Positions 11,701-62,913 of a stretch of DNA of 64,000 nucleotides are shown in pieces. The stretch is from Hormiphora californensis (Eukaryota; Animalia; Ctenophora). Numbering within the stretch: the stretch's first letter is position 1; every line of letters begins with the position of its first letter. Made by a program: the position numbers and the translations under genes. The stretch covers positions 6,138,001 to 6,202,000 of the forward strand of contig CM035354.1 of the NCBI GenBank assembly GCA_020137815.1, in the 5' to 3' direction. Below the pieces are notes generated by a model. It was given only the letters and a program-made list of their open reading frames with translations, had not been told where the DNA came from and searched no databases.

Positions 11701-13056
11701 CAACAACACTAATTCCAGGTGGGAGCTGAGAATGGGGATATTCTCAAGAAAAAGCCCAAGAGCAAAGTGGATTGGCTGCCTGATGAGAGGAGTGCTCTCC
11801 GTTCTCTCTACGAAGAGTTCCAATACGAGAAAGATCCCGTGGCGCTTATCCAAGAAAAACTGGACACCAAATCCCGGCAAAAGATAATCAAGGAGCTGGA
11901 GAGTATGTTGGGTGTGAGGAAGGCTGATCTAAATCCGGAGCGGTGTATCTGGACGAAAGATGAAGATGAAGAGCTGAAGATCCTGTACGAACACAAATCA
12001 GAGACCCACTCTGGGGAGGGATTGTTAGAGGTCATCCAGGACAAGATCTCCAAGTCTAGGACAGTTCAGGAGATTAAAGATGCACTGGTGAGGCTGAAAC
12101 TGAGAAGAGATGAGAGTAGCTCGGAGCACTTCTGGACTAAATCTGATCTGGCGGTAGTTGAGAAACACCAAGGTCTGCTGTCCAAGAAGGAGATGGTATT
12201 GCAGATAAGACAGGATTTACCTGATGTGGATTATAGCTCCATCATCCAGCAGCTCATTAGGATGGGTGTCATGACAACCATCCAGGGTGCTGAGATTCTA
12301 ATCCAGTGCAGTGATCTAGAACTTGAAGAGGAAGAGGAAGAAGAGGAGGAGGAGGAGGAGGAAGAGGAACATGATTTGTTTGATATTCCCAGTCATGTGC
12401 GAGGTTTGGAGTTGGATCATAGTGTCGCTCTCCGGTGGTTAACCCGTCTCTGTCAGGATGCAGTTGAGAACAGGGAGAACATGGTGGATTATGATACTGT
12501 GTTCCTGGTTCCTAAATGTGAGGAGCACCACGAGGCGTTGCGGGATGGAACATTTAAAGATCTGTTGAAGTGTCTGGGGGCGGTACCTCCACTCAGTGCT
12601 TACGAGACATTCTGGAAGATAACTAGTGATATCAGTGACAATGTGTTGAGAAAGGGGTTGTCACTTCTGAAAGGAGAGGATGGTGGAGATAGCACGGATC
12701 TGGATGATGTTGATGTGTCTAGTTATAATAGACCGATCCAGGAGGAAGAGGAGGAGGAGGGGGATATTGATGATTTCTTTGCAAAGTTACGGAACCAGAA
12801 ACCCACTGATAATGAGGCCGAGGTGTTTGTTGCACGTGCAGGGGACAAGTCACGTGATACAGAGTCACGTGGGGGCAAGTCACGTGATACAGGGTCACGT
12901 GACCAGTCTGATAGTAGTGACAAAGAGAATGAGGTCAGTGTGATCAGCAAGACTAAACGAACACTAGATGACAGTGATAGTGATGATGATATGGGAATGG
13001 TTAGTCAGACCAAAAAGAAACGAACTGCAATCATTGCTTTTAGTGACTCAGACTGA
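8794..13056 (+). CDS. TIMELESS: Timeless (TIM2/Timeout, replication fork protection), broken by apparent frameshifts, one likely intron ~11590-11718
   Basis: N-terminal TIMELESS domain (YVKGPECAICIGDLIKFLR, DLLPIL, LMVNLTMP, RHSRFGGTF, NNIFYQQEYRE), Myb-like W-repeats and a C-terminal PARP-binding-like domain (VFLVP...FKDLLKCLG...ETFWKI), spread over ORFs 8794-10029, 10322-11044 and 11719-13056. Confidence 0.92.
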
Positions 13057-16770: not shown

Positions 16771-19700
16771 CTAATCGGACCAGTCATCATCAGACTCGCT
16801 ATCAGATTTATCAGAATCAACAGCCAAATGTTTGTTTCTCTCTGCTAGAGCCCTTGCTAGTGCACCTGCCATACCCTCCAATTTATCTTCCGGCTCAGGT
16901 TCAGGTCGGTTGTCAGCCTGAAAGAAGGAAGGAGTTAGAGTGCGCGCTAAGGAGTCTACAAATGAGAGGATTGGCGTTCGCGCGTGCTGGGTGCTGTTCT
17001 GCTGAGTTGAAGTTATAAATAGAAGAGATCAGGTCTGGAGATGATCAGAGAGATGCAATGTGATCGTGAGAGAGAGTGGCTGCAGAAAATAAACCCTCCC
17101 GCACACACCCAACCATCCCACACGCCTCACACACACTCACAGATCGATCACTTCTGGGGGTACCAGACTTGGAGGAACTCTCCGATTTGTTGGCCTGAAT
17201 TTTGGGATTATTTTAACAATCAAACAGCAAAAAAGGGGGTAGTTTATCAGTTATCTAACTTACAGCTTTAAGACCTCCTCTAGCTCCACCGAATCCCCTG
17301 ATGGCAGACATTAGATCCCCACCACCACCAGCACCTCCAGCAGGTGCGGCGGGTAAAGGGTTATTGGCAGCACTTTGCAACTGTTTACCCCTCCTAATTT
17401 CATCTAGCAAGTTCCCCTTCCCCGGGGGAGGTGGGGGCGCACCAGGTGCCACTTTAGCCAATGCAGGGGCAGGAGGTGCCCGTGGGGCTGCCGGAGCAGG
17501 GGGAGCTTTAGGTGCAGGAGGGGCTGCAGGGGCAGGAGGGGCCCTTGGTGCAGCTGGTGCTGGAGGTCCACGGGAATGGGCAGGGGGTGGAGGAGGTGCA
17601 CCTCTATTACCTGGTAATGGGACAATGTTAGCATTTAGTGGTACGTCACTCACCCAGTGTCAAAAACTCGAGAAATTTCGAATCCAATTTCCATCTTTGA
17701 GGGAAAGTAATGCCTGGCCTAGTTCCCGAAATCCGAATCACATAGATTTGTCGGTAATGTGAATAACTTACACACAAGGTGGTGGTCCCTATTGTTACTT
17801 ACTAGGTGGTGGGGGAGGTGATCCCTATTGTTACTTACTAGGTGGTGGGGGTGGTGGTCCCTGTCGATGAGGTGCAGGGGGAGGTGGTCCCCTCTCATTC
17901 CTAGCGGGGGGTGGTGCTCGTCCCCCTGCCCTGGGGCCGGGTGGTGGGGGAGGTGCCCCCCGATTAGAGGAGGGAGGTGCAGGTGGGGCACCACCTCCCC
18001 GACTAGGTGGGGCAGGGGGAGGAGGTCGGCCACTCGGCTTTGTAGTACCAGCAGGTTTCTCTAAAGTTTCTATTCCCCCCATTTGGTCTACATAATCAGT
18101 AATAAACTGGGCGGTACTCTCATCCAGTTCGTTAGCCTTGACACCAGCAGCGTTCAGGAGTTGCTTGAACAAGGGATGCGCTTGGGAATCCTGAGAGGTG
18201 GGGGGGGTTCATTAATTTTATCGGGATTTTATCAAAATACTATTTAAGTTTTCTGTCAGAGCCAGATATCACATATATGAAACATATGATGAAAGCTTCA
18301 CACACATGTGTAACAGCCTCGTGATTTGCTTACATCAAACTTGTTCTTGGTTTCGTCCCAACCCAAGATGGCTGAGATGTTTGAAATTGGATGGTCCTGA
18401 AATATCAGCCTTGCTAATCCCCTTCTTCTTCTTATCCTTCTTTTTATCTTTCTTCTTTTTGTCCTTCTTACTAAGAGGAGCCACCGGCTCAGGGACAGGG
18501 ATATTGTTGGTTGTTGGTGGAGGCATGACTGCAGCGGGTGGGGGTCGGTTCTGGGCATCTATCTTCTCTGAAATATAGAGCGGTATGTGAGGGACAATGT
18601 GAGAGGGAAGGAGAGGAGAGAGTAGGAGAGGAGAGAGATAGAGAGAAAGAGAGGAAGATAGTGGAAGAGAGAGAGGAGATACTAATCGACGAGACTCAGA
18701 CCTACATATCCGCTCCCCTAGCCGTCTCTGCGCTCTCTGCATTTACTGATATGCCTCCTCACCGCGTTCTTTCTCTTCCCTCCTCTACTCTCCCTCCCTT
18801 CCCTCTTGCGCGGGTCGGCTCTGCTCTTTACCGGGGGCTCCTCCGTCTCTCGCCTCCTCTCCTCCTCCCTCTACGCTTCTCTCGTGCTGACCGCGTCTCG
18901 CTGCTTCTCTGCCTCCGCTCGGCTTCGTCTCCCTGCTCTCGTCTCGGCTCGTCTCTCCTCTCTTGCGCTTCTCTGCTCTCTCGCTCGCCGTCCCTTCTGG
19001 ACTGCGTCTCTGGCTGCGTCGTCCGTCGGCGCGCTCTCTCTCCGCCTCTCGCCGCTAGCCGCTCCGCGCTCTCGCGCGTCTCTTCTCTCCCCGCTCTCCT
19101 CCGCTCTCTCAGCTCGCTTCTCTCCGCCTCCCTCTTCGTCCTGCGAGAACATGAAACTGCAGCAACCCCTCCTACCTAATCTGTCGTATCGGTCATTAAA
19201 CTGAATGATGCACCCATCAACCGAGACAGTTCGTTTCACCATATCCCCCACCGCACCTCCCGGCACCCTTTTCAAACTATTAGATATCGGCAGAGGTGCG
19301 GGACCGTCTTCCCTTTGTCCCTAGGGGGTCTCCTCCAACTTTTCCGGCCCCCTCACCTCCTGATCCCTCTAATCACTTCCTAGTCTTTCACATATCATAC
19401 CCTCTTCCTTTGTGTTCGACCGTCAGCAGATGCTACCCTGACCCTTCCTGTGGTGTGGTAATCCCCTGGCTGATGGGAGGTTGCGGAGGTGTGTAGATGA
19501 TTCGATGGGGAGGTGTGTTGGTAGGAGGGTCCATAGTTATGTGTAGGAGATGAGCGGGTGTGGTAGGAGGGTTGGGATATCGGGTAGTTCGTTGGAGAGG
19601 TAGTTGTGCTAGATCCTGGGCTTTGGTATGAAAAAGAGCTGTACCCAAGAGGGTCGTGGGAGGAGCACGAGGGAGATGACACCATATATCCCAGATGGAG

Positions 19701-20816
19701 TGGGTGGGTCACCTGTTCAGTACAATGGTAACTCTCTCGATTTAAAGAGGTCCCATAACTGCTGCAACTCTTAAAATCTCCTTGGCGGTAGAACGGAATT
19801 TCATCGGCGAATGCCACACTTTTCTTAGCCCGTGGTAAGGATTTAGTAGGAGATATGATGGTGGGACGAGGTCTAGTAACCAGGTCACATGACCGGGCGG
19901 ATCGTAGTGGAGAAGGAGGTGGAGGAGGTATCCGGTCAGATAGTTCTATCAGCCCACTGTCAGTAGCTGGATCACTCAGATGATTAGCAGTAGGGCAGGC
20001 TGGAATTGGACTGATGGAACACGGTCGTCTCTCCTTCTTCACCATGTGAAGGTTTCAGAGGAGAGAGAGAGTTTGTTCAATCCTCACACTCTCTCTGATG
20101 GCCCAAGAATGAAAGTTACATTTACAACTCCTTAATCTGCAACCTTCGATAACAAATTGTCAAAACTGTTCGTATACTGCACTTATTTCCAAGTTGCAAC
20201 ACTGGACACTGGATCGGGGAAACAAATCAATGTTGTCAGAAGAGAATAAGGGGAGGGTAGCAAGGTAACATACTTGCTTCTGCAAACGAGTTAACGCGAG
20301 AGAGACGTTATACACACACAAAGTTTCTGCATAGGGCTAGAGGGAGAGAGCGGGATAGTGGTTGAACGAGAGAGAGGGAGAGAGGGCTACAATAATCTAG
20401 GGTATAGAGAGAGAGCTCAGTGAGGGAGAGCTGAATGCAGCTCAGGCAGAGAGGGAATTATAGATGTTGGGTGTTAGCAGACATCCAGGCGAGGGAGAGC
20501 AAATGGACAACTTCAACATCTAGCTGCAAGCGGACGAATTAAGAATGGAGACAAAAAATAACGATAGAGAGACAGACAAAAAAAGACGGCGAGAATACAG
20601 CAATATAGAGATTGAAAACTGGAGAGGTGTAGTCTGACCAGTGACCAATTCACCGGAGAGACAAAGTGAGAGAGATGAAAATGAGTAAGGATAGAGCCAG
20701 AGGACAGAGAGCGAGAGAGAGAGGGGGGATAGAGAGACTAGAGAAAGAAGGGAGAGAGAGGTGTAGTGAGACAGAGAAAGAAAGGCAGTGAAAATAAGAG
20801 AGAAAGAAGAGAGAGA

Positions 20817-20879
<63 letters not shown>

Positions 20880-21227
20880 CGCGAGAGAGAGAATGATATA
20901 GTAAATGGTTTAAAGAAAGTTTAAAATTAAAACTTTAAAGACTGTAGCTAGCGAGATCTAGTTGCTCCAGGGTGGTAAATGAGGCAGAATAAAGAAAGGA
21001 GATAAGAGAGATTGATTGAGCGTAACAAGAGAGAGATATTGGATATAAAGTCAATTGATAGGATGATTTGTCATTTGTTCTGAACAATTGGTCAATGGTC
21101 ATGGTATTGCACCTACCCTTTCTCTTTTTATTTCGATTGATTATTCCATTGACGGCATCTAAAAACAGTTGTGCCTCACCATCGTGACAGAAGTTCAGCC
21201 CTACCATACACTTCTGGAAAAGGAAGA

Positions 21228-21283
<56 letters not shown>

Positions 21284-22293
21284 TTAGAGAGAAAGAGAGA
21301 AGTAGAGCACACACAAGTGTACAAACGTGCACGTACTGCTGCAGACCATCCAACATTACACGCGAATGACTGTCAAAACACTAAACAGGAAAAGAGATCA
21401 TAAAACTCAGATAGTGAGGGTAATCCAATACTCCTATATTTTTAGTATTTTATCATGTTTGTGGAAGTTTCGGAGAGAAAAGGGGACAGAAAGAGAGGGA
21501 GAGAGTGAGACAGAAAGAGACATGATCATCGAGACATCATGATCATCGATACCCGACAGTCAGGCGCTCTGCATATTTTACATGCTTAGACATTTGGTAA
21601 ATTTTAAATATTTAAACAAATCACCAACTGGGATGATTACTTATTACTTCTAGATTATCTATCCCAATATTGATTTCCAACCTCATTCCAAGCCACTAAT
21701 CCCACCATAATTATAGGGGATCCTCGACCCCCCCCTGGATCCCTCTTTCTATACGCTACCCTTTTAGTTACCTCTCCAGCGAAGGTATGGAAGTAGGGAT
21801 ATGGTGTCCTGTAGTCCATTTCTAGGTAAAATTCCTCCGAGTGCACCACTGTATGTGTCTGCGGAGGAGGAGCGTGTTAGTAAGTTGATAAGGGCGAGAT
21901 GAGCGAGTTAGTACTGGTAAGGGCGAGAGGAGCGAGTGGCCCCAAGAACAAGAACATGTCCTACGAATTAAGTCTTACATCAATGTTAACAACATGAATG
22001 AAGTATGATCTTTGGTTGTGGTCCTTCACCACACAGGCCACTCCAGTATTCTTCTTTGTCCAGACCCGGGGATTTGGTGCTGCTTGGAACAACTGGGCTA
22101 CCGTACACGCCATCACCTGTTATAATAGTGGGTGTTAAGGAATATTTTAAACAATTGGGGCTGGATATAGTTGATATTTCAAAGAAAGTCTTACTCACCT
22201 CTTGTTTAGGGGCGTACATCTCCCGAATAATGGTGTTTTCCTCATTTGATAGGAGCTCTGACCGAGCATACGTCGGCGAGGCTTTGTTAGCCA
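16771..22293 (-). CDS. WASL: WASP/N-WASP actin nucleation-promoting factor
   Basis: WH1 exons (SELLSNEEN, WTKKNTGVACVVKD, PYFHTFAGE, MVGLNFCHDGEA), basic tract plus CRIB (KKKGISKADISGPSNFKHLSH), polyproline, two WH2 motifs (NLLDEIRRGKQLQSA, DLMSAIRG), and central/acidic end GALARALAER...DDDWSD*. Confidence 0.93.
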
Positions 22294-32427: not shown

Positions 32428-33177
32428 TTAGATCAGATACGGGATAACTGCTCGCCTACCAGCTGGATAATCCTCGATCTTACTACGATAGTAACTGTGA
32501 GCCTGACAGCCTCTCTGCCCCAGAAACACAGAGGTGAACACAGCAAACCAGAGGGCTGCACGTGTTTGGGCAACTGCTGCGTATCCCCACCACTCAACAA
32601 TTTCTCCAAAGTAGTTAGCAGCAGAGACAAGTTTAAAGACGCCCTTGGTTGGTGTAAGATACTGTTTACCAACCCTTCTGGCAGCTAACTCTCGGAGATG
32701 AGAGTCGGCTGAGATGTTAATAACTGCACCACACACAAAAATCAGGACACCTAGAATCTGGATAACAGATAAAGCATTATCAGTTGAATGTAATCTGAGG
32801 AGAAATGTGACCTGCAAAAAGCCGTTAAATGTACAAAAACCAAAAGCAGATACAACAGTTTCCAGTGGTGTCGGGTTAGATGAGGTCATGAGAAAGGGAA
32901 ATATAAATGATCGGTTGAAGTAATGAGCTGTGAATAAACAAAGTGGTATGAGAATCGGTAAAGGGAGACTGAAGTCTAGATGGAAGAGGGTAATGAAAAA
33001 TGCGGGGCACTCTTGAATCATCCAGCCAAGTTTAGCGTTCATTTTAGCCCCACAAAACACTCCTCCATCTTTTGTGAACTTCCCATACGGTGCTGGGTTC
33101 CAGTGAAGATAAAACGGGAGCACAATCGTGACCAGAAAGGCAAGGTTGACAACAGAATCCGCAGTTAGAGGAAACAT
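32428..33177 (-). CDS. SRD5A1: 3-oxo-5-alpha-steroid 4-dehydrogenase (SRD5A1/2, DET2 family), intronless
   Basis: Motifs PYGK, GWMIQECPAF, HYFNRSFIFP, NYFGEIVEWWGYA and YPAGRRAVIPY. The Met at 33177 follows a TTTTAG acceptor, so it is preferred over 33207. Confidence 0.9.
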   Translation of the reverse strand: MFPLTADSVVNLAFLVTIVLPFYLHWNPAPYGKFTKDGGVFCGAKMNAKLGWMIQECPAFFITLFHLDFSLPLPILIPLCLFTAHYFNRSFIFPFLMTSSNPTPLETVVSAFGFCTFNGFLQVTFLLRLHSTDNALSVIQILGVLIFVCGAVINISADSHLRELAARRVGKQYLTPTKGVFKLVSAANYFGEIVEWWGYAAVAQTRAALWFAVFTSVFLGQRGCQAHSYYRSKIEDYPAGRRAVIPYLI

Positions 33178-33932
33178 GTGCCCTAAAATTACAAAAAAAT
33201 AAAACATTGCGGTTCAAACAAAAAGGATGATGTCAACCAGATAATTTGGCTTGATAGCCATCGTTTCAAGTGACTTATCACTCAGTAGCAGCCCAAAAAG
33301 TAAAGAAAACTGGCAAATTTTGAGTTTGAAAAATTAAAACTTTAAAATTTCAACTTTTGAAAAAATTTACAAAAAAAGTGCTGCGCGTTACGCATTTTGT
33401 AACGCGCAAATAAAAAATCGCGCCGCGCACCCCATTTCACACTGAAAAAAGTTTTCAGTCCAGCTTTCAAATTTTCGCTTTTTCGATTTCCTTTTTTAAA
33501 CTTTTTCAAAAATCGAGGTTCGAGCGCCAGTTTCGACCAATCACAGCTTAGAACATCTCTTATGACGTGCGGGTCACGAGTGTGCGATAGAACTGTTCTG
33601 CTCTATAAATCTTGATTGGTAAAAGTTAAAACTGAAAACGCTGTTGCCAGTAACCAGTTACTCGATCTGATCATATGTTACCTTCCGAGTTCCAGCTTCC
33701 CTCATTTGCGTACCCCCGCTACGTTAAAGATGACTGCAGCTTATGTAACAGTCCCTACTCCATTCATTCGCGTACCCCAATTCGAGGTGACTGAACCCAG
33801 TCCAGTTAACTTCACAGTAAATCCGTTGTTTTCCCCCAGGCTCCCGCTCCGCACATAAACGCTTCATTATTCCTTGCCTATACTATTCCTTGCATGCGGT
33901 TCTAAATCTGATCCTGTTTCACAACTTTTGGG

Positions 33933-35577: not shown

Positions 35578-36336
35578 ATGAGTTCTGTTGTTACCCTTCT
35601 CCCCAAGACTGTGGAAAACGCAGATGCATCTATTCTGACTCTACATCATCCGAAAAATGGCCAAAAGTGTTTGGTATATTTCGCAAACAACACATTTCAC
35701 GAGCTTCTATCTGCAAATGATAAATACGTTTCGTGGTTTGTTGGTGATAGTTTGATCGGTGGAGAACCGTTAACTGTCGCTACCAAGATCGACCCGGTAT
35801 TCTTAGTGCTGCCGTATCTGATGAAGAATCCTCACCAATATGCCCCACTGGACCAGACTCTAGTTGATGACCAGTTCCCCTGTGCTATGCAGCTCAGTGA
35901 AACAGACGTGTCCTGTGTAGCAGATGTGAAGGATGAAAGGCTTGGTATTGTTAAATTCAACAAGGAAAAGACTATCAACTGGCTAGTTGGAAAGGTGGAC
36001 AAAGTTATCAATGCGATGAAAGAAAATGGGGTTGAGCCAGGGTTTAATTCTCTGCTGAGTGACAAAGAGTATCAGAGGTATGCAGTTGGTATAGTGAGTG
36101 ACTATATCTCAGCCACCCTCTCCTCTGATCTACATGACAGATTGGGTATTGAAGTTGTGTGTTATGAGGATGAGAAGCCTGCAAAAAGGCAGAAGTTAAC
36201 TGAACCTGACTTACCGGTGAAGGAGAAAAAGGGAGTGAAAACTAAAGCACCCAAACAGACTAAATCACAGCGTGATCTAGCGAACGTGAACACTAAAGGA
36301 ATGAAATCGATGGCTTCGTTTTTCAAAAAGAAGTAG
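35578..36336 (+). CDS. RNASEH2B: Ribonuclease H2 subunit B, intronless
   Basis: Motifs LHHPKNG, SWFVGD, ATKIDPVFLVLPYL and KFNKEKTINWL, plus a C-terminal PIP box KGMKSMASFF. Confidence 0.93.
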   Translation: MSSVVTLLPKTVENADASILTLHHPKNGQKCLVYFANNTFHELLSANDKYVSWFVGDSLIGGEPLTVATKIDPVFLVLPYLMKNPHQYAPLDQTLVDDQFPCAMQLSETDVSCVADVKDERLGIVKFNKEKTINWLVGKVDKVINAMKENGVEPGFNSLLSDKEYQRYAVGIVSDYISATLSSDLHDRLGIEVVCYEDEKPAKRQKLTEPDLPVKEKKGVKTKAPKQTKSQRDLANVNTKGMKSMASFFKKK

Positions 36337-41308: not shown

Positions 41309-51960
<10,652 letters not shown>

Positions 51961-52169
51961 GGGGCGCGAAACAAACCTGGGCAGATGTGCTGAAGTTGTG
52001 AAGGGCTAGCAAACTACTAGCTTGGGTTCGAAGCATGGGGCTGTTAGTTAGGTTGTAGAGAGGGGTGAAGTCCATGCCTCGCCCACCACGGTCAACTGTT
52101 AACCTCGGAACTTTCAGCGCTCAATCTTCCACATCTAAGCTACTTTGTATAACAGTTATCATGTTAGCT

Positions 52170-53235
52170 AACGGGATATCACTGCGCTGGCAAGCGCAAA
52201 GGTGGCCCCATCCCATCCCCCCGAAACTTTTCCCGAAAAAGTGGGCCCGCTTGCCAACAGCGTAGATATAACAATTTTGAAGTTTTAGCCCATTTTGGCA
52301 CTTTTCGACCCCTCCTAACTCCAGAACCAGATGAGCTAGGAAGCTGAAATTTGGTACTAAGAAGCTTCACATAGACCTCTACTGACGGTAAAAATTTCAA
52401 GTAGCTAGCTCATTCCGGTCGCAAGTTATGACACCACCCCCAAAACAGAAAATTCAGTGTGGCGATAGGTATATATATAGATAGATATATAGATATAGAC
52501 GCTTCACTGTGTAACACTTGTAGCCCGAACCATACTAGCTAGAGACTTGAACCAACTTTTATCCGTTAGCAAATCGTTCGGGGCATGCATTAGTTAAGGT
52601 TTCGAGTGAAAATTTCCACTATGACGACCGTAATGACGTCACAAAGTGACGTCATTGAAAAATCTCAGACCAAATATTTTCAAACGCCTCTAACACCCTC
52701 AAGACGTATTATGATTCCTAATTTGACGGAAAATCGTTAGTGGCAAATTGTCTGAACTTTCTGATACTATATTGTGATTTTCTCTAACTTGTCATTTTAA
52801 GACCTTAAAACGCGTCGGAACTCAAAAACTTGATGTGAAAATCTACACAAAAACGCACATTTCGTACAATAACTTCAGTTCTTGACTACTGCTGCCTTTA
52901 AAACTTTCCACACGTTTAGTGCTTCATCGGCCGAATAGTCTGTCATAGTTTTTTACGTCGTCGTGACGTCACATGTGACGTCACGACGTCAAAACGACGT
53001 CGAATTTTGAAAATTTCGTCAAATCAGTTTCCTACAACCCAGGATACATTTGAATTACATTTTAACACTTTAGCTGACAATTATCTTAGTTGTTTGAGGT
53101 CATAAATGACCTCAAACGACCAAAAAAGAGTTCAAATTTAGAGCAAAAACTAATTGAAATTAGTTCGCCAGAAAGGTGGCCCATTTTGAACTTACTCCTT
53201 CATTTCCGTCACCTTTGAGTTGAAGGCGGAAAAGT
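52170..53235 (-). mobile_element. Non-autonomous Helentron-type (DINE-1/HINE-like) element
   Basis: On the minus strand: 5' AAAGGTGAC with a nearby inverted GGGCCACCTTT, an internal (TATC/TA)n microsatellite at ~52470-52500, and a 3' GGGCCACCTTT followed by the stem-loop TGCGCT-TGCC-AGCGCA. Confidence 0.6.
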
Positions 53236-54936
53236 TTACGGATACCTCAATGTCTTTGAAGCCTCAACTCAAAGGTGACGGAAATGAAGGAGTAAGTTCA
53301 AAATGGGCCACCTTTCTGGCGAACTAATTTCAATTAGTTTTTGCTCTAAATTGACTGCAATACGTATTACAGTTTTATTATTAAATCTGTTTACAATAAT
53401 TTGACACTGTCAATATTGCTAATCAGAGGTAGATCCTCGAAACTTGTTGCGACATTATACCCGTCTGGTTCATTTGTTCAGCCACAGAGAGAATAACAAA
53501 AACTCTGATTATCAAACATGAGGCTAATAAACAGTTATCCGATCACCCAACTGTCTACTATTGTCAATATTGCCCTCCTTTTACAGTTTACAACTTACAA
53601 GTTTACTAGTTTCATCATTCAAACTGAAGATGAGTATGGAACAGGTCCTGCTGAATTCTAGCAATGATCAACACAAATGACAAAAGCAAGATAATAAAGG
53701 TATCTTAACCAAATGTCACTAAATAATTTTAACGACTATGACCGAACTTTGGAAGATTACAAGATTACAAGATTACAAAAAAGTTTTAGTATGTACAATT
53801 CACAAGTCATACAACGCACTCAGCAGGGCTTCCGCGTGAGAAAACAGTGTCGTGGCCTAAATGAACCTACTTTACCTCGGTGAGACGGGCTACTATACCA
53901 GATCCACAATCTCAAATCCTAACTGATGAAGCCGAAAGCTTCTGATTCTTAAGTGAATTTCAGTACTGCTGAATAGTTGTTTTCATTAATTCTTAATTCC
54001 CTACCTTATCTAATCTCATTTCTCGCCCTTAGCCACAAGGATTAAGGACACATCTTCCCCTAGTGCATTCGAATTCTTTATCTAGCTGGCAAGTTAAGTT
54101 TCAATCTAGACAACCATAAGATTGGAGTTAGCCTTGTAGTCCTCTTTTCGCAGATATTGCACACAGCACATTGCACATATTCTGTATTCAGCTCCACACA
54201 GAAGCTATTCGAATAACAAGTCAGCAGTACATGATAATGGCGCACCTTTCGACCAGTCCCGCCGGTGGCCGTGAAAACGAGCGCAACGGGCCTGCAGCCG
54301 GGCGCCGGCAGCGATGGGCGAGGCAGAACTTCTTTCGGCAAACGCTGCTGGGATAAGGTAGAGCTTTTCAAGAACTTCTTGTGAGTTTTGGCTTAGCCTA
54401 CGCTGCAGTCCCCAATGAAAGCCGTGGGAAACGCGTGCACCAGGGATCTGCAGCGCATGGCAAAGTTGTGGCGAAAGCCGAAAAGTGGAACTGGAAGTTG
54501 AAAAGTCTGAAAACTTTGATTTTGGAGATTTTAAATTATCCCGAGAGCCTCGCGGCGCGTTTATTATTGGCATGCGCTGCAAATATAATGTGCGCGTTTT
54601 GACGGCGCGGCGACGCGGCAGATTTTCCAAAATGTTTCTTGTTTTTGGCCTGAAACACCCAAAAGACAAAAACCCTGCCGTGCGGTGTTGGGGTTAGCAA
54701 ATTTTCTGCCGTGGGCCAGCAGCGTCTGCCAACCAAAACCCCGCCCTTTTGATCCCACCGATGCGGTGCTGGCTGTTGTGGTTTTATTTTCCCTTTTGGT
54801 CCAAGAGTTTTCCTCTCCATCAGTAAAACATGGCTGATAATGAATAGGCAACATACGGTGACTATTTATTCAACTAGTTCATCCTTTTTTCGCCCTATTC
54901 GTAGTCTTAATTTTGTTTAAATTTTAGTGGACAGCT

Positions 54937-56325
54937 ATGAGTGATCCTGTGAGGGTATGTGTGATCGGTGCCGGTGTCAGTGGCCTCTGTATAATGGGTA
55001 TGCTCAAGAAATACAAAGACCAAGGGAAAGCAGTCACCGTAACATGCTACGAGAAACAGGATGTTATTCTCGGGCTGTGGAATTTCACCTGGAGGACGGG
55101 AATGGACAAAACTTGTGAACCAGTCCACGCTAGTCAGTACAGGGATCTCTTCTCCAATGGACCTAAGGAGGCGTGCGAGTTCCCTGATTACACATACGAA
55201 CAACACTTTGGCAAGGCAATCCCCTCCTTCCCCCCAAGATCCGTGCTACGGGACTACCTCGTTGGTTATTTCAACCATCTAGGGGTTGGAGAGGAAGATG
55301 TTTTACTGAACCACTCTGTTCAATCCGTAACCTACTGCGAGAAGACCAAGAAATTCACCGTTACTGCTCTCAATTTTTCCGAGGGCAATGACAAGGCAAC
55401 GTCGCTTTCAGATGTGTTTGATTATTGTGTTGTGTCTATCGGTCACTTCTCCATCCCCAACGTCCCAGAGTTCCCTGGACTTGATAGCTTCCCTGGAAGA
55501 GTTATGCACAGCCATGACTTCAGGAATGCCCGAGAGTTCACCGGCCAACGGGTCCTGACGGTGGGTAACAGCTACAGTGGGGAAGATATGATGCTGCAGA
55601 CAAAAAAGTTTGGTGCTAAGGGTGGTACCATCTCCTACAGGAGCCAGCCAACTGGTTTCAAGTGGCCAGAGGGTATTGACGAAAGGCCCCTTGTTTCCCG
55701 GTTTGATGGGAATACTGCTCACTTTTCGGATGGCACCTCAGGAGAGTATGATGCTGTTATTCTTGCCACCGGATACCTGGTCCACATTCCGTTCATGGAG
55801 TGGGAGTACAGGCTGCAGTGCCCCACCATCCTTAATGTCCCTGACCTGTACAGGGGTGTCTTGTGGACTCCCATGTCCGAGGGCAAGAAGAGTGCTGATA
55901 ACAGGTTGTTCTACATCGGCATGCAGGACCAGTGGTATACCTTTACCCTGTTCCAACTCCAGGCCGTGTGGATCGCACAGGCCATTAAGGGGCTCAAGGA
56001 GATTCCCCCTGTTGAGGAGTGCCATGCTGAGATAACCCTGTGGACTGGGACCAACCCTGAGGTCACTAGCTGCCCTTACAAGGCCATCCAATCCCAGACT
56101 GACTATCTTCTCCGGATGCAGGCTGATACCGGCTTCGAAGGGGAGTTTGATGCACATCAGCAGCTCTTTGATTGGAAGAAGAGTAAAATGGATGATGCAG
56201 GAATACATGAGTACAGGAATAGGGCCTACCCCTCCCCAACAACAGGTACCATGGCCCCCCTCCACAGTACCCCCTGGATGGACCTAATGGATGATGGGAT
56301 CGATGCTTATATCAACGCTGCCTAG
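54937..56325 (+). CDS. Flavin-containing monooxygenase, bacterial Tmm/mFMO type, copy 1 (intronless)
   Basis: FAD motif GAGVSG, WNFTWRTG.D...EPVH.S.YR.L.SNGPKE, FMO motif FPGRVMHSHDF, NADPH motif GNSYSG, FYIGMQDQWY and TGTMAP.H.TPW. Confidence 0.95.
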   Translation: MSDPVRVCVIGAGVSGLCIMGMLKKYKDQGKAVTVTCYEKQDVILGLWNFTWRTGMDKTCEPVHASQYRDLFSNGPKEACEFPDYTYEQHFGKAIPSFPPRSVLRDYLVGYFNHLGVGEEDVLLNHSVQSVTYCEKTKKFTVTALNFSEGNDKATSLSDVFDYCVVSIGHFSIPNVPEFPGLDSFPGRVMHSHDFRNAREFTGQRVLTVGNSYSGEDMMLQTKKFGAKGGTISYRSQPTGFKWPEGIDERPLVSRFDGNTAHFSDGTSGEYDAVILATGYLVHIPFMEWEYRLQCPTILNVPDLYRGVLWTPMSEGKKSADNRLFYIGMQDQWYTFTLFQLQAVWIAQAIKGLKEIPPVEECHAEITLWTGTNPEVTSCPYKAIQSQTDYLLRMQADTGFEGEFDAHQQLFDWKKSKMDDAGIHEYRNRAYPSPTTGTMAPLHSTPWMDLMDDGIDAYINAA

Positions 56326-56553
56326 ATTCCCACTCCAACAATTTAACAAATACCCCAGAGCTGGGGTGTTACATTTAAGCAGGCTTCAGTTTTTTGTAAA
56401 AAGCATGTTTGTGTTTGTAATTGCATCTTTGTATTTTGTATCTTAAAATATGCTAACGTTTTCGTTTAGTTTGGATAATATAGCGGGCATTTTGTGGCCT
56501 ATTGCAAACTTTGTAGTATGGGCAGCAAATGCCAGGTCTGACTGGACCCAGAA

Positions 56554-57039
56554 GGGGGGGGGGCGTCAGTCGTCACCTTTTTTTTGCCCATTGCCCATAA
56601 TCCCAGCGAATTTTGGTAAGTGGCAAAAGTGGGCAAAAATGGGCAAAATGAAATTTTCAGTGTTATATGTCGTTTTTTCAACTCTATACCTTCATGTCAT
56701 CTCTTAAAAACTCGGTCAGAATGGTCTTTGGTGTCTAATTAGTAGTCAAATTGTTTTTAGTGGTCAAATCCTAAATTTAGGATTTTTTAGGTTTTTTGGC
56801 TTTAATGGGTTTTAGAAACGTCCTAGAACAAAATAAATACAAGCATCTTCCTCAGCGTGAAATTCTGCTTCGATTATAGTGGCTATAAACCTATCTATGA
56901 TGTAAGGTGCAGGAGTTATTTTTTTGCCCATTTTTGCCCATTTTGCCCAAAGTCCCACGATTTTTGAAAATTCACTTTTGCCCATATGGGCATATATGGG
57001 CAAATATGGGCAAAATAAAAGGTGACGCCCCCCCCCCCC
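56554..57039. mobile_element. MITE with poly-G/poly-C ends
   Basis: Ends G10-CGTCA...CCTTT / AAAGGTGACG-C12, subterminal TTTGCCCA repeats, 8-bp duplication ACCCAGAA. Absent from the paralogous site downstream of copy 2. Confidence 0.85.
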
Positions 57040-57332
57040 ACCCAGAATAAAATCATGATATAAGTACATGTTGAGTAAGTTTTATAGAACTATTTTTCAT
57101 AGGATTTTACCTTTAATACCTTTAGTGGACCCAGAATAAAATCATGATATAAGTACATGTTGAGTAAGTTTTGTAAACTATTTTTCATGGGATTTTTACC
57201 TTTAGTAACCTTTTGTTTTGTAAAGGATAATTTATACAATAATGGCTTTGACGGCCATCTTTTAATAATCAATTGTTGAAATTTCTTCTTAACTATTAAA
57301 TCCTAAAATGTCCCTCTCTCTCTGTAGCAGTC

Positions 57333-57427
57333 ATGAATGGAATGGAGAATGTCGCAGGCCTGGAGATGCAGATGAACAACATGTTTGAGTTGCACAAACA
57401 GATGACAACTGGTGCCATGCCCACCGC
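57333..57427 (+). pseudogene. Truncated duplicate of the first ~32 codons of the HMG-box gene
   Basis: Near-identical to 60743-60837 (MNGMENVAGLEMQMNNMFELHKQMTTGAMPTA), then breaks off. Confidence 0.9.
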
Positions 57428-57585
57428 CCTCCGAACGGGAAAAACGTGCAGCTCAAGTCGCTTGAAACGGACTTTATTGGCATGTGCTGCAAATATAATG
57501 TGCACGTTTTGACGCCGCGGCAGATTTTCCAAAATGTTTCTTTTTTTTGGCCTGACACCCAAAAGACAAAAACCCTGCCGTGCGG

Positions 57586-57868
57586 GGAAAACGTTAAAAT
57601 CTGGGTGCCTTCCATTGCTAACATTTCATCGATTTTGGGGTTCGAGACGGGTTAGGGCTGTTCTTAGGGTCGGGTTAGGGTTTTGTTTGGTGTTATCGGT
57701 TAGGGCTATCGATTCTCTATCAGATACCGTTTAGTTTACTCAAATCGGCCATGTGGTTGCGTGGCTATAGCCGTTTGAAAAAAGTCGGTCTAAGTGGTTT
57801 TAGGTGTACTTTTTTGGCAGCACGCACCTGTAAGCACGCTGCAAGTCACCCAGATTATAATCGCGCCC
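57586..57868. mobile_element. 283-bp insertion with imperfect TIRs and 9-bp TSD
   Basis: GCCGTGCGG on both sides (single at the paralogous site ~54678). AATCTGGGTG / CACCCAGATT inverted near the ends. Internal GGTTAGGG motifs. Confidence 0.8.
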
Positions 57869-58128
57869 GCCGTGCGGTGTTGGGGTTAGTGAATTTTCTG
57901 CCATGGGCCAGCAGCGTCTGCCAACAAAAACCCCGCCCTTTTGATCCCACCGATGCGGTACTGGCTATTGTGGTTTTATTTTCCCTTTTGGTCCAAGAGT
58001 TTTCCTCTCCATCAGTATAACATGGCTGATAATGAATAGGCAACATACGGTGACTATTTATTCAACTAGTTCAGCCTTTTTTCGCCCTATTCGTAGTCTT
58101 AATTTTGTTTCAATTTTAGTGGACAGCT

Positions 58129-59517
58129 ATGAGTGATCCTGTGAGGGTATGTGTGATCGGTGCCGGTGTCAGTGGCCTCTGTATGCTGGGTATGCTCAAG
58201 AAATACAAAGACCAAGGGAGAGCAGTCACCGTAACATGCTACGAGAAACAGGATGTTATTCTCGGGCTGTGGAATTTCACCTGGAGGACGGGAATGGACA
58301 AAACTGGTGAACCAGTCCACGCCAGCCAGTACAGGGATCTCTTCTCCAATGGACCTAAGGAGGCGATTGAGTTCCCTGATTACACATACGAACAACACTT
58401 TGGCAAGGCAATCCCCTCCTTCCCCCCAAGATCCGTGCTACGGGACTACCTCGTTGGTTATTTCAACCATCTTGGGGTCGGAGAGGAAGATGTTTTACTG
58501 AACCACTCTGTTCAATCCGTAACCTACTGCGAGAAGACCAAGAAATTCACCGTTACTGCTCTCAATTTGTCCAAGGGCAATGACAAGGCAACGTCGCTTT
58601 CAGATGTGTTTGATTATTGTGTTGTGTCTATCGGCCACTTCTCCATCCCCAACGTCCCAGAGTTCCCTGGACTTGATAGCTTCCCTGGACGAGTTATGCA
58701 CAGCCATGACTTCAGGAATGCCCGAGAGTTCACCGGCCAACGGGTCCTGACGGTGGGTAACAGCTACAGTGGGGAAGATATGATGCTGCAGACAAAAAAG
58801 TTTGGTGCTAAGGGTGGTACCATCTCCTACAGGAGCCAGCCAACTGGTTTCAAGTGGCCCGAAGGCATTGACGAAAGGCCCCTTGTTTCCCGGTTTGATG
58901 GGAATACTGCTCACTTTTCGGATGGCAGCTCAGGAGAGTATGATGCTGTTATTCTTGCCACCGGATACCTGGTCCACATTCCGTTCATGGAGTGGGAGTA
59001 CAGGCTGCAGTGCCCCACCATCCTTAATGTCCCTGACCTGTACAGGGGTGTCTTGTGGACTCCCATGTCCGAGGGCAAGAAGAGTGCTGATAATAGGTTG
59101 TTCTATATTGGCATGCAGGACCAGTGGTATACCTTTACATTGTTCCAACTCCAGGCCGTGTGGATCGCACAGGCCATCAAGGGGCTCAAGGAGATTCCCC
59201 CTGTTGAGGAGTGCCATGCTGAGATAACCCTGTGGACTGGGACCAACACTGAGGTCACTAGCTGCCCTTACAAGGCCATCCAATCTCAGACTGACTATCT
59301 TCTCCGGATGCAGGCTGATACCGGCTTCGAAGGAGAGTTTGATGCACATCAGCAGTTCTTTGATTGGAAGAAGAGTAAAGTGGATGATGCAGGAATACAG
59401 GAGTACAGGAATAGGGCCTACCCCTCCCCAACAACTGGTACCATGGCCCCCGTCCACAGCACCCCCTGGATGGATCTAATGGATGATGGGATCGATGCTT
59501 ATATCAACGCTGCCTAG
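58129..59517 (+). CDS. Flavin-containing monooxygenase, bacterial Tmm/mFMO type, copy 2 (intronless)
   Basis: Same motifs as copy 1. 13 amino-acid differences in 462 counted by eye. Confidence 0.95.
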   Translation: MSDPVRVCVIGAGVSGLCMLGMLKKYKDQGRAVTVTCYEKQDVILGLWNFTWRTGMDKTGEPVHASQYRDLFSNGPKEAIEFPDYTYEQHFGKAIPSFPPRSVLRDYLVGYFNHLGVGEEDVLLNHSVQSVTYCEKTKKFTVTALNLSKGNDKATSLSDVFDYCVVSIGHFSIPNVPEFPGLDSFPGRVMHSHDFRNAREFTGQRVLTVGNSYSGEDMMLQTKKFGAKGGTISYRSQPTGFKWPEGIDERPLVSRFDGNTAHFSDGSSGEYDAVILATGYLVHIPFMEWEYRLQCPTILNVPDLYRGVLWTPMSEGKKSADNRLFYIGMQDQWYTFTLFQLQAVWIAQAIKGLKEIPPVEECHAEITLWTGTNTEVTSCPYKAIQSQTDYLLRMQADTGFEGEFDAHQQFFDWKKSKVDDAGIQEYRNRAYPSPTTGTMAPVHSTPWMDLMDDGIDAYINAA

Positions 59518-59584
59518 ATCCCCACTCTACAACAATTTAACAAATACCCCAGAGCTGGGGTGTTACATTTAAGCAGGCTTCAGT

Positions 59585-60635
59585 TTTTTGTAAAAGGCAT
59601 GTTTGTGTTTGTAATTGCATGTTTGTATTTTGTATCCTGAAATATGCTAACGTTTTCGTTTAGTTTAACTAATATAACGACCATTTTGTGGCCTATTGCA
59701 AACTTTGTCGCATGGGCTGCAAATGCCAGGTCTTGGACTCAGTACATGTTGAGTAAGTTTTATAGAACTATTTTTCATGGGATTTTTACCTTTAGTAACC
59801 TTTAGTAACCTAAACCTAGTACATGTTGAGTAAGTTTTATAGAACTATTTTTCATGGGATTTTTACCTTTAGTAACTTTTAGTAACCTAAACCTAGTACA
59901 TTTTGTAAAAGGCATGTTTGTGTTTGTAATTGCATGTTTGTATTTTGTATCCTGAAATATGCTAACGTTTTCGTTTAGTTTAGCTAATATAACGAGCATT
60001 TTGTGGCCTATTGCAAACTTTGTCGCATGGGCTGCAAATGCCAGGTCTTACCGGACTCAGAATAAAATCATGATATAAGTACATGTTGAGTAAGTTTTAT
60101 AGAACTATTTTTCATGGGATTTTTACCTTTAGTAACCTTTAGTAACCTAAACCTAGTACATGTTGAGTAAGTTTTATAGAACTATTTTTCATGGGATTTT
60201 TACCTTTAGTAACCTTTAGTAACCTAAACCTAGTACATGTTGAGTAAGTTTTATAGAACTATTTTTCATGGGATTTTTACCTTTAGTAACCTTTAGTAAC
60301 CTAAACCTAGTACATGTTGAGTAAGTTTTATAGAACTATTTTTCATGGGATTTTTACCTTTAGTAACTTTTAGTAACCTAAACCTAGTACATTTTGTAAA
60401 AGGCATGTTTGTGTTTGTAATTGCATGTTTGTATTTTGTATCCTGAAATATGCTAACGTTTTCGTTTAGTTTAACTAATATAACGACCATTTTGTGGCCT
60501 ATTGCAAACTTTGTCGCATGGGCTGCAAATGCCAGGTCTTACCGGACTCAGAATAAAATCATGATGTAATTACATGTTGAGTAAGTTTTATAGAACTATT
60601 TTTCATGGGATTTTTACCTTTAGTAACCTTTGTAA
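59585..60635. repeat. Compound tandem repeat (~77-bp unit interleaved with a ~170-bp unit)
   Basis: AGTACATGTTGAGTAAGTTTTATAGAAC...TAGTAACCTAAACCT occurs about 7 times. The TTTTGTAAAAGGCATG...GCCAGGTCTT block occurs 3 times. Confidence 0.9.
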
Positions 60636-60742
60636 AGGGTAATTTATACAATAATGGCTTTGACCATCTTTTAATAATCAATTGTTGAAATGTTTTCTAA
60701 ACTATATAAATCCTAAAATTTCCCTCTCTCTCTGTAGCAGTC

Positions 60743-62913
60743 ATGAATGGAATGGAGAATGTCGCAGGTCTGGAGATGCAGATGAACAACATGTTTGAGT
60801 TGCACAAACAGATGACAACTGGTGCCATGCCCACCGCAATGAACCAGTTCAGTATGCACTCTGAACTACTCCCTCAGCAGCAGGCAATACTCTCCCAGCA
60901 ACACATCCTGTCTCAACAGTTTGCTGCCCAGTCTCCCGTCCCCCACTCCCCAATGGGCAGCCAACCCGCCCGGGGCAGGGGTATCAATGCAAATCAATTG
61001 AAGATAGATAACAGGAAACGGAAAAGGAAAGATCCAAACCGACCTAAACGAGCCATGACACCGTACTTTTTCTTTGCGGCGGAGTACAGGAATAGTTTGA
61101 GAAGAGAGGGCAAGCCTGTTCCAGGAGTAAAAGAGGTAAGACATACTAGCTATAATACTCCGAGGTAACTTGTTTTTCAAGCCCCCCCCCCTTTTCCTCC
61201 CTTCCCTTCCCCCTTCCTAACCTTCCTAACCTTCCCTCCCCCCGCAGGTTGCCCAGTACTGTGGACCAAAATGGAATTCCATGGCAGAGGAGGAACGAAG
61301 ACCATTTGTAGAGTCCGCTGAACGAGATAGACAGAGGTACCTGGAGGAGATGAATATCTACAAAAAACCACGTGATGAGGACAAACCTAAACGGCCCGCC
61401 AGCGCTTACTTCCACTTCCTGGTTGATTTCCGTAAGAAGATGGCGGGTAAACCACTCCCAGAACACACCACCATCCCCAAACTGAGTGGAGCTCTGTGGC
61501 AGAAGATGACCGAGGATGAGAGGAGGCCGTATAATGAGAAAATGGAGCAGGAGAAGAAGGTGTATGAGCAGAAGTTGGCTGATTACAGAAAGGTAAGGGT
61601 TTGGAATTGTGTCAAGATTGTATGTTCTAGAAGCCCAGCCCCTTAAAATCTAGCTCTCTTTCTATCTCTCCTTTTTTCTTCTCTCTACCTCTCTTTTTTT
61701 CCTTAGCTCTCTTTTTCTTTCTCTCTAGCTCTTTTTCTCTCTCTCTCTCTCTCACTCCCTCTCTCCCCCCTCTCTCTCTCACGAGTTTCCTGGAGCCTGA
61801 TAAGGTGCAGTACTACACTAGTAAAATACCAATCACCCTCTAGGTCTGACCCTAATTGCCGCACCCAATGTCTTCCTAAATACTCCCGCCCTACTACCTA
61901 ACTAGAGTGTTAACTTGTGTGGCTCACACCGCATTTCGATAGATCAACAGTTAACCTTATTAACAAGAAAGCACCAAGATACTGGTACTAAATCAATTAA
62001 ATTAACAGAAACAGCTAACCATAACCTTTCTCCCCACCAGATGAAAGCAGAGGAGGCGATCAAGCTAGCGGAGAAGACGAAGCCAGAGGACGGAGGAGTC
62101 GGTGGAGGGTATTCCGAGTACACTGCCCCTCCTGCCTCGACCCCGGTAACGATACCAGCTGCCAGCGCTGCCTCTTCCTCCGCAACCACTTCCACCCCGC
62201 AACTTACCATGCCCCAGATACCCGCTGAGTACACCGATATCAACCGCCAACTCCAGATGGTATAGTGTGACGAGATACTACACTCCCCCCCCCCCCATTA
62301 ACATGCCCCCCCCCCATTAACATGCCCCCCCCCCCTCCCCATTAACATGCCCCCCTAAATTAGCGTTAACCCGGATTGACACCCCCCCCCCCCTTGAAGT
62401 AACTAATAACCCCCATTAACCCCCGCTCCTCAAGCCCGTTTATCCGCCCTATCACGGACCCACCCTCCACTATATATCCCCACATGACGCTTTTTTGTGA
62501 TAACCCTATTCCTCGTGACACCTGTATTGGGTTACAAATGTGCAATTGTTATTTAATGTTCTTGGGTGCTGTGTTCATTATTCGCTCTTTGCAAATGTCC
62601 CCCCTCCCCTCCCTGTAACCCCTGGGGATGCTGATACCCCTCCCCCCTCATTGTGCTGCTGTGTTCCTAACCCCCTCCCTCCCCTTCCCAGATGAGTAAC
62701 CAGATGAACAGCCAGAACAAGGCGATCAGCTGGCAGGAGCAGTTCCAAACAATGCAGGCGGCCCAGGTAGTCCAACACTTCAACAACTACTCAAACTACT
62801 ACAATAACTCTCCCTCAAGTGCAAGTGGCGCCTCCGCAGCCGACCCAGCAGCCCAACTATTACAAAGTTTAGCCCCCGTACAAGACACTAAAGCGGCAGC
62901 CACCCCACGGTAG
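60743..62913 (+). CDS. Two-HMG-box protein (HMGB/DSP1-like) with Gln-rich N- and C-terminal extensions
   Basis: Exons 60743-61135, 61248-61592, 62041-62259 and 62692-62913. Box 1: KDPNRPKRAMTPYFFF...WNSMAEEERRPF. Box 2: DKPKRPASAYFHF...WQKMTEDERRPY. Confidence 0.9.

Follow-up and report, generated by a model that had tools for sequence, protein, structure and literature searches.

A probably tandemly duplicated Tmm-type flavin monooxygenase gene in the ctenophore Hormiphora californensis is likely a native animal gene and not a recent bacterial import

We analyzed a 64,000-nucleotide stretch of the genome of the ctenophore Hormiphora californensis (contig CM035354.1; the whole stretch is called the window) in which two neighboring genes encode flavin-containing monooxygenases (FMOs) resembling the trimethylamine monooxygenase (Tmm) of marine bacteria. 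A preliminary description of this DNA had proposed that the genes were acquired horizontally, but a notable acquisition of this kind by this animal is not supported by our sequence comparisons. Instead, with a probability of roughly 70%, we regard the locus as encoding a native ctenophore clade II FMO of the Tmm type that is predicted to be soluble and to oxidize small amines or sulfides, was likely passed down vertically from the last common ancestor of animals or earlier, and probably gained its tandem duplicate recently. Because closer homologs occur in other animals, an insertion is shared with them, and grouping with bacteria is rejected, the reading of a recent import fails.

The two open reading frames (ORFs) lie on the plus strand, encode 462 aa each, and contain no internal stop (Table 1). 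They are 97% identical, differing at 35 of 1389 nt and at 13 residues, and their colinear alignment to bacterial Tmm/mFMO chains across residues 5 to 460 shows that both are intronless. Pfam matches place a TEAD gene upstream (minus strand) and a multi-exon HMG-box gene downstream (plus strand), so that ORFs, alignment, and Pfam all agree with the arrangement first described. In a search of solved structures, the 13 best PDB matches were all bacterial Tmm/mFMO chains (E values 1.5e-121 to 3.7e-111), with weaker matches to insect PNO (1e-43) and an ancestral vertebrate FMO (1e-26). The AlphaFold model (pLDDT 86.6) had a TM score of 0.91 to mFMO and 0.63-0.66 to vertebrate-type FMOs, and PF00743 scored above its cutoff. 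The FAD motif GxGxxG is present as GAGVSG at residue 11, and the FMO signature FxGxxxHxxx(Y/F) as FPGRVMHSHDF at 185. The NADPH motif GxSYS[AGS], with its lid tyrosine, is present as GNSYSG at 210; it has been proposed as Tmm-defining (cluster C4 of a sequence similarity network) in a passage of PMC7688232. These matches and motifs bear out the assignment to the Tmm/mFMO subfamily that had been proposed from motifs, as well as the reported lack of a C-terminal membrane anchor: no hydrophobic C-terminal helix was found, and the maximum 19-residue hydropathy in the last 60 windows was about -0.05. We also compared the residues mutated in Pelagibacter Tmm7211 (N72, S203, R226, H227, N288, D314, and R409, as listed in an excerpt of PMC8498191). 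Five of the seven are identical here (N74, S212, R235, D331, and R427), and H227 is replaced by Ser, as in RnTmm. By sequence, the protein is a clade II FMO of the Tmm subgroup, predicted to be soluble, in the scheme of Nicoll and Mascotti, whose passages on clade II describe it as mostly eukaryotic and soluble, with bacterial Tmm included (PMC10682829).

The genes belong to the host. One metatranscriptome contig aligned to 58112-59128 carries 13 unaligned letters at its 5' end, CTTTAAACAAATT, which match the H. californensis spliced leader exactly (as given in an excerpt of PMC8527503). In this register the leader's last two letters, AG, coincide with the genomic AG of 58118-58119, located 9 nt ahead of the start codon. 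The host is thus identified as a ctenophore, probably a pleurobrachiid, the FMO mRNA is trans-spliced, and the spliced-leader check suggested in the preliminary description came out positive. RNA contigs lay on the coding sequence (CDS) in all four RNA-type runs examined, one of which is only presumed to be RNA. In a second species, DNA contigs of about 93-95% identity tile 58077-59013, and the HMG gene is found there as well. When the ctenophore-like alignment was used to scan metagenomes (23 of 64 parts; best 80 of 557 loci considered), two transcript-sized loci with 49-52% identity emerged, of which L081, near-identical to the Bolinopsis protein, starts with a ctenophore-type leader and L082 shows none; a further locus, L134, was bacterial in appearance. 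Base composition and codon usage also fit the host better: GC content at third codon positions is 0.60 in the FMO gene compared with 0.41-0.60 in seven neighboring host CDS stretches, and the codon-use distance is 0.34 to pooled host CDS, with all 65 bacterial tmm genes farther away (0.43-0.73). Bacterial contamination is therefore excluded, and this is a real host gene with host repeats in its flanks. The miniature inverted-repeat transposable element (MITE) cited earlier as an argument against contamination is real.

The homolog search returned 2,616 matches at E ≤1e-20, headed by proteins of Tigriopus, Bolinopsis, and transcript-sized contigs, not by bacterial genomes. The top homologs on transcript-sized contigs were 47-54% identical to the query, and the Bolinopsis protein, annotated as "trimethylamine monooxygenase-like", was 51% identical. 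With a Ruditapes homolog as query, matches were found in eight bivalve genera, Rhopilema, Desmophyllum, Tigriopus, and Eurytemora. In GTDB, of which 53 of 64 parts were scanned, 583 relatives turned up, and the best 80 of them were 42-48% identical, none exceeding 48%. The alien index calculated from the homolog-search E values, a check put forward earlier, was +7.3 without ctenophores and -40 with Bolinopsis, both under the threshold of 45 used for Mnemiopsis (PMC6005172, in a passage on its screen). Among viral contigs, 14 pattern matches were found and none was confirmed as a relative. Six divergent representatives were used for a profile search that returned almost only bacterial-type Tmm among the 120 of 528 matches listed. 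Atlas clusters of look-alikes include diatom, ciliate, and streptophyte members, a weak and nonphylogenetic indication, and the divergent sequences may be of protist origin.

A first tree of 307 rows (aligned sequences) contained three groups, namely bacteria, a ctenophore-like group, and a cnidarian-bivalve-copepod group. For later trees, 121 rows were reduced to 80 (19 dropped for gaps, together with suspected chimeras, copy 1, and thinned near relatives) and then to 45 for the careful tree and topology tests. Five rows served as the outgroup, and the two that were checked best matched insect PNO; divergent representatives were added too. IQ-TREE (LG+C20 PMSF, 45 rows) placed the ctenophore-like group (100/100, UFBoot/SH-aLRT) as sister to the other animals (100/98), and the two were joined at 98/89. 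An 80-row quick tree gave the same animal grouping (SH-aLRT 94), and in a 484-row FastTree the animal clade (0.958) held 162 rows, with none of the 76 GTDB rows and none of the 113 rows added from the bacterial search inside it. Nesting within bacteria, for which a phylogeny had been proposed as a check, was not recovered; the free trees give an animal clade instead. A loop at residues 309-326 also sets the animal rows apart from the bacterial ones. In alignment-based counts all 162 rows of the bacterial clade have a loop of 10 residues, whereas its length is 12-19 in each of the 123 other-animal rows and 15-19 in each of the 22 ctenophore-like rows; it is longer than the bacterial loop in all 145 animal-clade rows, mostly 18 residues in ctenophore-like and mostly 12 in other-animal rows. 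We relied on these counts; a motif-based measure failed on 70 of the 138 other-animal rows and on 53 of the 279 rows in the bacterial clade.

Some features of these groups deserve mention in their own right. Within the ctenophore-like clade, P0014, P0016, and P0017 are Ala/Arg-rich and lie on 1.6-kb contigs. Dozens of environmental proteins on 1.4-2 kb contigs (P0139-P0235) cluster with copepod Tmm-like proteins, and P0211, from the copepod-containing group, is annotated as a trimethylamine monooxygenase.

Approximately unbiased (AU) tests on the 45 rows rejected a grouping of the window protein and its sister with bacteria (p 8.5e-7), and trees and tests together place the window proteins outside the bacterial Tmm clade. 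We regard both a recent transfer, whether into the species or its genus, and bacterial contamination of the assembly as extremely improbable. Either would fit the intronless structure and the full-length identity of 44-48% to bacterial Tmm, but both are refuted by the spliced leader on the mRNA, the presence of the gene in a second species, the closer homologs in the ctenophore-like clade (50-54% identity), the AU result, and the alien index. A notable horizontal acquisition by this animal is not supported in view of the cnidarian, bivalve, copepod, and Bolinopsis homologs, which form one clade with the window proteins and share the insertion.

Earlier exchanges are harder to dismiss. Ctenophores could have acquired Tmm from bacteria early and independently, in which case their grouping with other animals would be a tree artifact. 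Every tree containing an outgroup, however, joins ctenophore-like and other-animal rows, in the order expected if ctenophores branch first, and the insertion occupies the same loop in both groups. No GTDB relative exceeded 48% identity among the best 80 of 583, and the words "monooxygenase" and "flavin" are absent from the main text of the Mnemiopsis horizontal gene transfer (HGT) paper (PMC6005172). We consider such a transfer improbable, even though joining all ctenophore-like rows with bacteria gave a borderline p of 0.056, the insertion is mostly 18 residues compared with mostly 12 in other animals, one clade member has a bacterial label from a metagenome-assembled genome (MAG), and early HGTs into ctenophores are described in passages of that same paper.

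A single old transfer from bacteria to the animal stem, or from early animals to bacteria, followed by vertical descent, would refine the vertical reading. We regard it as possible, if on the unlikely side. A clade of all animals plus bacteria was not rejected (p 0.39, log-likelihood 2.7 lower), the animal rows average 48-52% identity to the bacterial rows, and the gene has no introns here. Many divergent Tmm-like representatives (33-45% identical to the query), however, branch around and below both groups. Several of these look eukaryotic by their extensions and, weakly, by look-alike clusters with diatom, ciliate, and streptophyte members; bacterial Tmm is shallow, with a mean identity of 65% within the group; and clade II FMOs are otherwise mostly eukaryotic according to passages of PMC10682829. 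The preliminary description had cautioned that Tmm-like FMOs might occur in other invertebrates and that the transfer could be old. The named homologs prove this caution justified, and an old transfer is compatible with the AU values for both the animal and the ctenophore stem.

Several observations weigh against a native, vertically inherited Tmm-type gene, the borderline ctenophore-stem test among them. Outside the animal clade, the backbone has little resolution (48/36 for bacteria in the 45-row tree), and no sponge, placozoan, or choanoflagellate sequence was identified among the homologs. The ctenophore-like clade has 24 rows, and a positive assignment to ctenophores exists only for the two window proteins and that of Bolinopsis; 20 carry no taxon name, as do many other-animal rows. 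P0014, a member of the ctenophore-like clade from a 1,657-bp contig, bears a Planctomycetota MAG label, although it is probably misbinned. The leader-bearing RNA is a single contig from a single study. The FMO gene is intronless, yet intron-poor host genes occur in the window (PF02544 and PF09468), and the absence of introns is thus weak evidence of transfer. As to the Tmm type, N288 of Tmm7211, which is Asn in 161 of 162 bacterial-clade rows, is Thr here, and the NCBIfam Tmm model (NF058570) gave 502.6 and 511.7 bits compared with an equivalog cutoff of 675. Given Tmm-type motifs and residues with a score below 675 bits, the protein likely works in a Tmm-like manner and is not classed as a bacterial Tmm.

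Activity on trimethylamine (TMA) or dimethyl sulfide (DMS) is predicted from the conserved residues, and by analogy these two are the best-supported guesses for substrates; according to a passage of PMC10682829, preference for N or S substrates is unpredictable from sequence. As in bacterial enzymes with class B chemistry, NADPH would reduce FAD, and O2 would form a C4a-hydroperoxyflavin held by Asn74 and bound NADP+ beneath the Tyr213 lid. A soft nucleophile would then enter past Asp331 and be oxygenated, converting TMA to trimethylamine N-oxide (TMAO) or DMS to dimethyl sulfoxide (DMSO). The likeliest role, by analogy with the clade II default, would be clearing of dietary or microbial amines and sulfides. 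TMAO as a useful product (an osmolyte or piezolyte) is possible, though unsupported here: passages of PMC6797910 and PMC10077225 contain no ctenophore TMAO data, and PMC7997507, in the part concerned, demonstrates a pressure role for a bacterial Tmm only.

Self-alignment revealed a tandem duplication with about 2.9 kb of shared sequence that comprises the upstream region, the FMO gene, and its 3' flank; of the HMG gene, it includes no more than the first 32 codons. The corresponding self-BLAST pairs are 54674-56551 with 57866-59742 (96.5% identical) and 57127-57427 with 60544-60837. The claim that a host gene was coduplicated thus stands insofar as HMG sequence lies in the duplicated unit, but only a 5' fragment was copied. 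The event, likely recent, would have copied the promoter, the FMO gene, and the 32 HMG codons, after which repeats would have inserted separately into each unit; the MITE is abundant in the genome, with a summed contig depth in the thousands. The pN/pS ratio between the FMO copies is about 0.21. At residue 60, copy 1 has Cys, whereas Gly occupies this position in 305 of the 306 other aligned sequences and the remaining one has a gap. The substitution suggests that copy 1 is decaying, and may thus be drifting, or that the letter is a sequencing error. The segment at 59586-60391 is skipped by contigs from two DNA runs and one RNA run, and is a private expansion, an assembly error, or a contig collapse, not an intron.

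We think it quite probable that the tandem duplication is real, possibly as a polymorphism. Separately from the question of origin, the two copies could be alleles of one locus misassembled in tandem, which we find rather doubtful. The 2.5% divergence between copies is of allelic size, short-read contigs collapse into a single FMO in which letters from the two copies are mixed, no listed contig piece bridges the junction at 57427/57428, and a second-species contig continues unbroken past 60837. However, contigs begin at 60808 in two runs of one sample, and in one of these runs the preceding contig stops precisely where the duplicated segment ends (60837), the pattern that a branch in the assembly graph would produce; the stopping contig has the unit-1 letter at 60769. 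FMO contigs also exceed HMG contigs in depth in three runs (111 versus 61-89, 425-559 versus 236-341, and 1781 versus 273-962), although contig depth is not copy number and was not taken as such, and each unit has its own repeat insertion. Empty contig bins over copy 1 reflect assignment of contigs to copy 2, not absence of copy 1.

Table 1. Features of the FMO locus, in window coordinates
Feature	Position	Strand	Basis and remarks
TEAD/scalloped gene, span of Pfam-matching exons	41687..50518	-	TEA (PF01285) in two ORFs, YBD (PF17725) in three; divergently oriented relative to the FMO pair
Duplicated unit 1 (upstream region, FMO copy 1, 3' flank, HMG 5' fragment)	54564..57427	+	Self-BLAST
Predicted trans-splice acceptor AG, copy 1	54926..54927	+	9 nt before ATG; context as in copy 2
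Tmm-like FMO copy 1, 462 aa, intronless	54937..56325	+	ORF, profile, self-alignment; Cys60
MITE, 486 bp, terminal inverted repeats, 8-bp target-site duplication (56546-56553 / 57040-57047)	56554..57039		High-copy; missing from unit 2
Truncated duplicate of HMG 5' end (acceptor and first 32 codons)	57217..57427	+	Self-BLAST; ends at duplication junction
283-bp very high-copy repeat upstream of copy 2, 9-bp direct repeat at its flanks	57586..57868		Sequence and contig depth
Trans-splice acceptor AG, copy 2	58118..58119	+	Spliced leader on RNA contig at site
Tmm-like FMO copy 2, 462 aa, intronless	58129..59517	+	ORF, profile, structure model
Internally repeated 3' flank, 806 bp (77-bp units and longer copies)	59586..60391	+	Self-alignment
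HMG-box gene, first two coding exons	60743..61592	+	PF09011/PF00505

Elsewhere in the window we found a Timeless-family gene with at least three long coding stretches (8794-13056, plus strand; PF04821 and PF05029), a single-ORF steroid 5-alpha-reductase-like gene (32428-33207, minus strand; PF02544), and a single-ORF RNase H2 subunit B gene (35578-36336, plus strand; PF09468). Proline-rich, CRIB-like, and WH2-like ORF pieces at about 17255-21324 (minus strand) may represent a WASP-family gene. A 22-bp unit repeated about 26 times in an array (about 50590-51160) lies beside a TEA-domain exon of TEAD, and a perfect 89-bp inverted repeat with a 40-bp spacer (53135-53352) lies within a high-copy repeat (52054-53400) between the TEAD and FMO genes.

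Taken singly, the locus is ordinary, being another member of a subfamily already annotated automatically as "trimethylamine monooxygenase-like" in marine invertebrates. It is nevertheless a clear case of a false HGT signal, appearing strongly alien when compared with vertebrate FMOs alone and losing that signal once marine invertebrates are sampled. We found no description of an invertebrate Tmm-like lineage or of FMO transfer into ctenophores in a literature search that left most subscription journals outside, and the soluble Tmm-type lineage across marine invertebrates is apparently uncharacterized. TMAO rises with depth in many invertebrates, with diet versus synthesis unresolved as its source in passages of PMC10077225, and the Tmm-like orthogroup is a concrete candidate enzyme for its synthesis. 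Many members lie on transcript-sized environmental contigs, so that marine and other environmental tmm counts may include animal (zooplankton) transcripts. More speculatively, and with the odds against it, a single uncharacterized soluble Tmm orthogroup extending from ctenophores to copepods would make the TMAO and DMSO of these animals, having crossed the boundary between bacteria and eukaryotes a single time around when animals arose, perhaps in the direction from eukaryotes to bacteria. If so, zooplankton enzymes would remove TMA and DMS directly, and animals would account for part of the "tmm" signal recorded in ocean metatranscriptomes.

Among known systems, bacterial Tmm/mFMO proteins (RnTmm, 5ipy; Tmm7211, 7d4k; Methylophaga mFMO, 2xve; Myroides Tmm, 6kbw; NF058570) align colinearly over the full length and share the fold (TM 0.88-0.91), the FAD, NADPH, and FMO motifs, Asn74, the Tyr213 lid, Asp331, and the lack of a membrane anchor. 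The ctenophore protein differs in being only 41-48% identical to them, in scoring below the NCBIfam cutoff, in having Thr for Asn288 and an 8-residue loop insertion at about 311-322, and in being encoded by a nuclear gene with a trans-spliced mRNA. The RefSeq "trimethylamine monooxygenase-like" proteins of Bolinopsis microptera, Rhopilema, Ruditapes, Mytilus, Argopecten, and Ylistrum, along with the Tigriopus and Eurytemora homologs, belong to the same animal clade and have the insertion at the same site; the Bolinopsis protein is 51% identical, and its matching mRNA carries a ctenophore leader. The window protein forms a separate branch of the ctenophore-like clade, sister to P0004 (54-57% identical), and has a tandem duplicate in the window. 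Other clade II FMOs described in passages of PMC10682829 (insect PNO/SNO, plant GS-OX, yeast FMO, and bacterial Tmm) are likewise of about 450-460 aa and of the soluble type, with a short insertion in the NADPH domain, but the insect and plant members match far more weakly (E 1e-43 and 1e-30). The vertebrate FMO1-5 proteins, which belong to clade I and are the known animal TMA oxidases, share class B chemistry and the FMO signature, and FMO3 makes TMAO too; they differ, however, in their structural identity of 19-23%, their length of about 530 aa, their membrane helix, and their clade.

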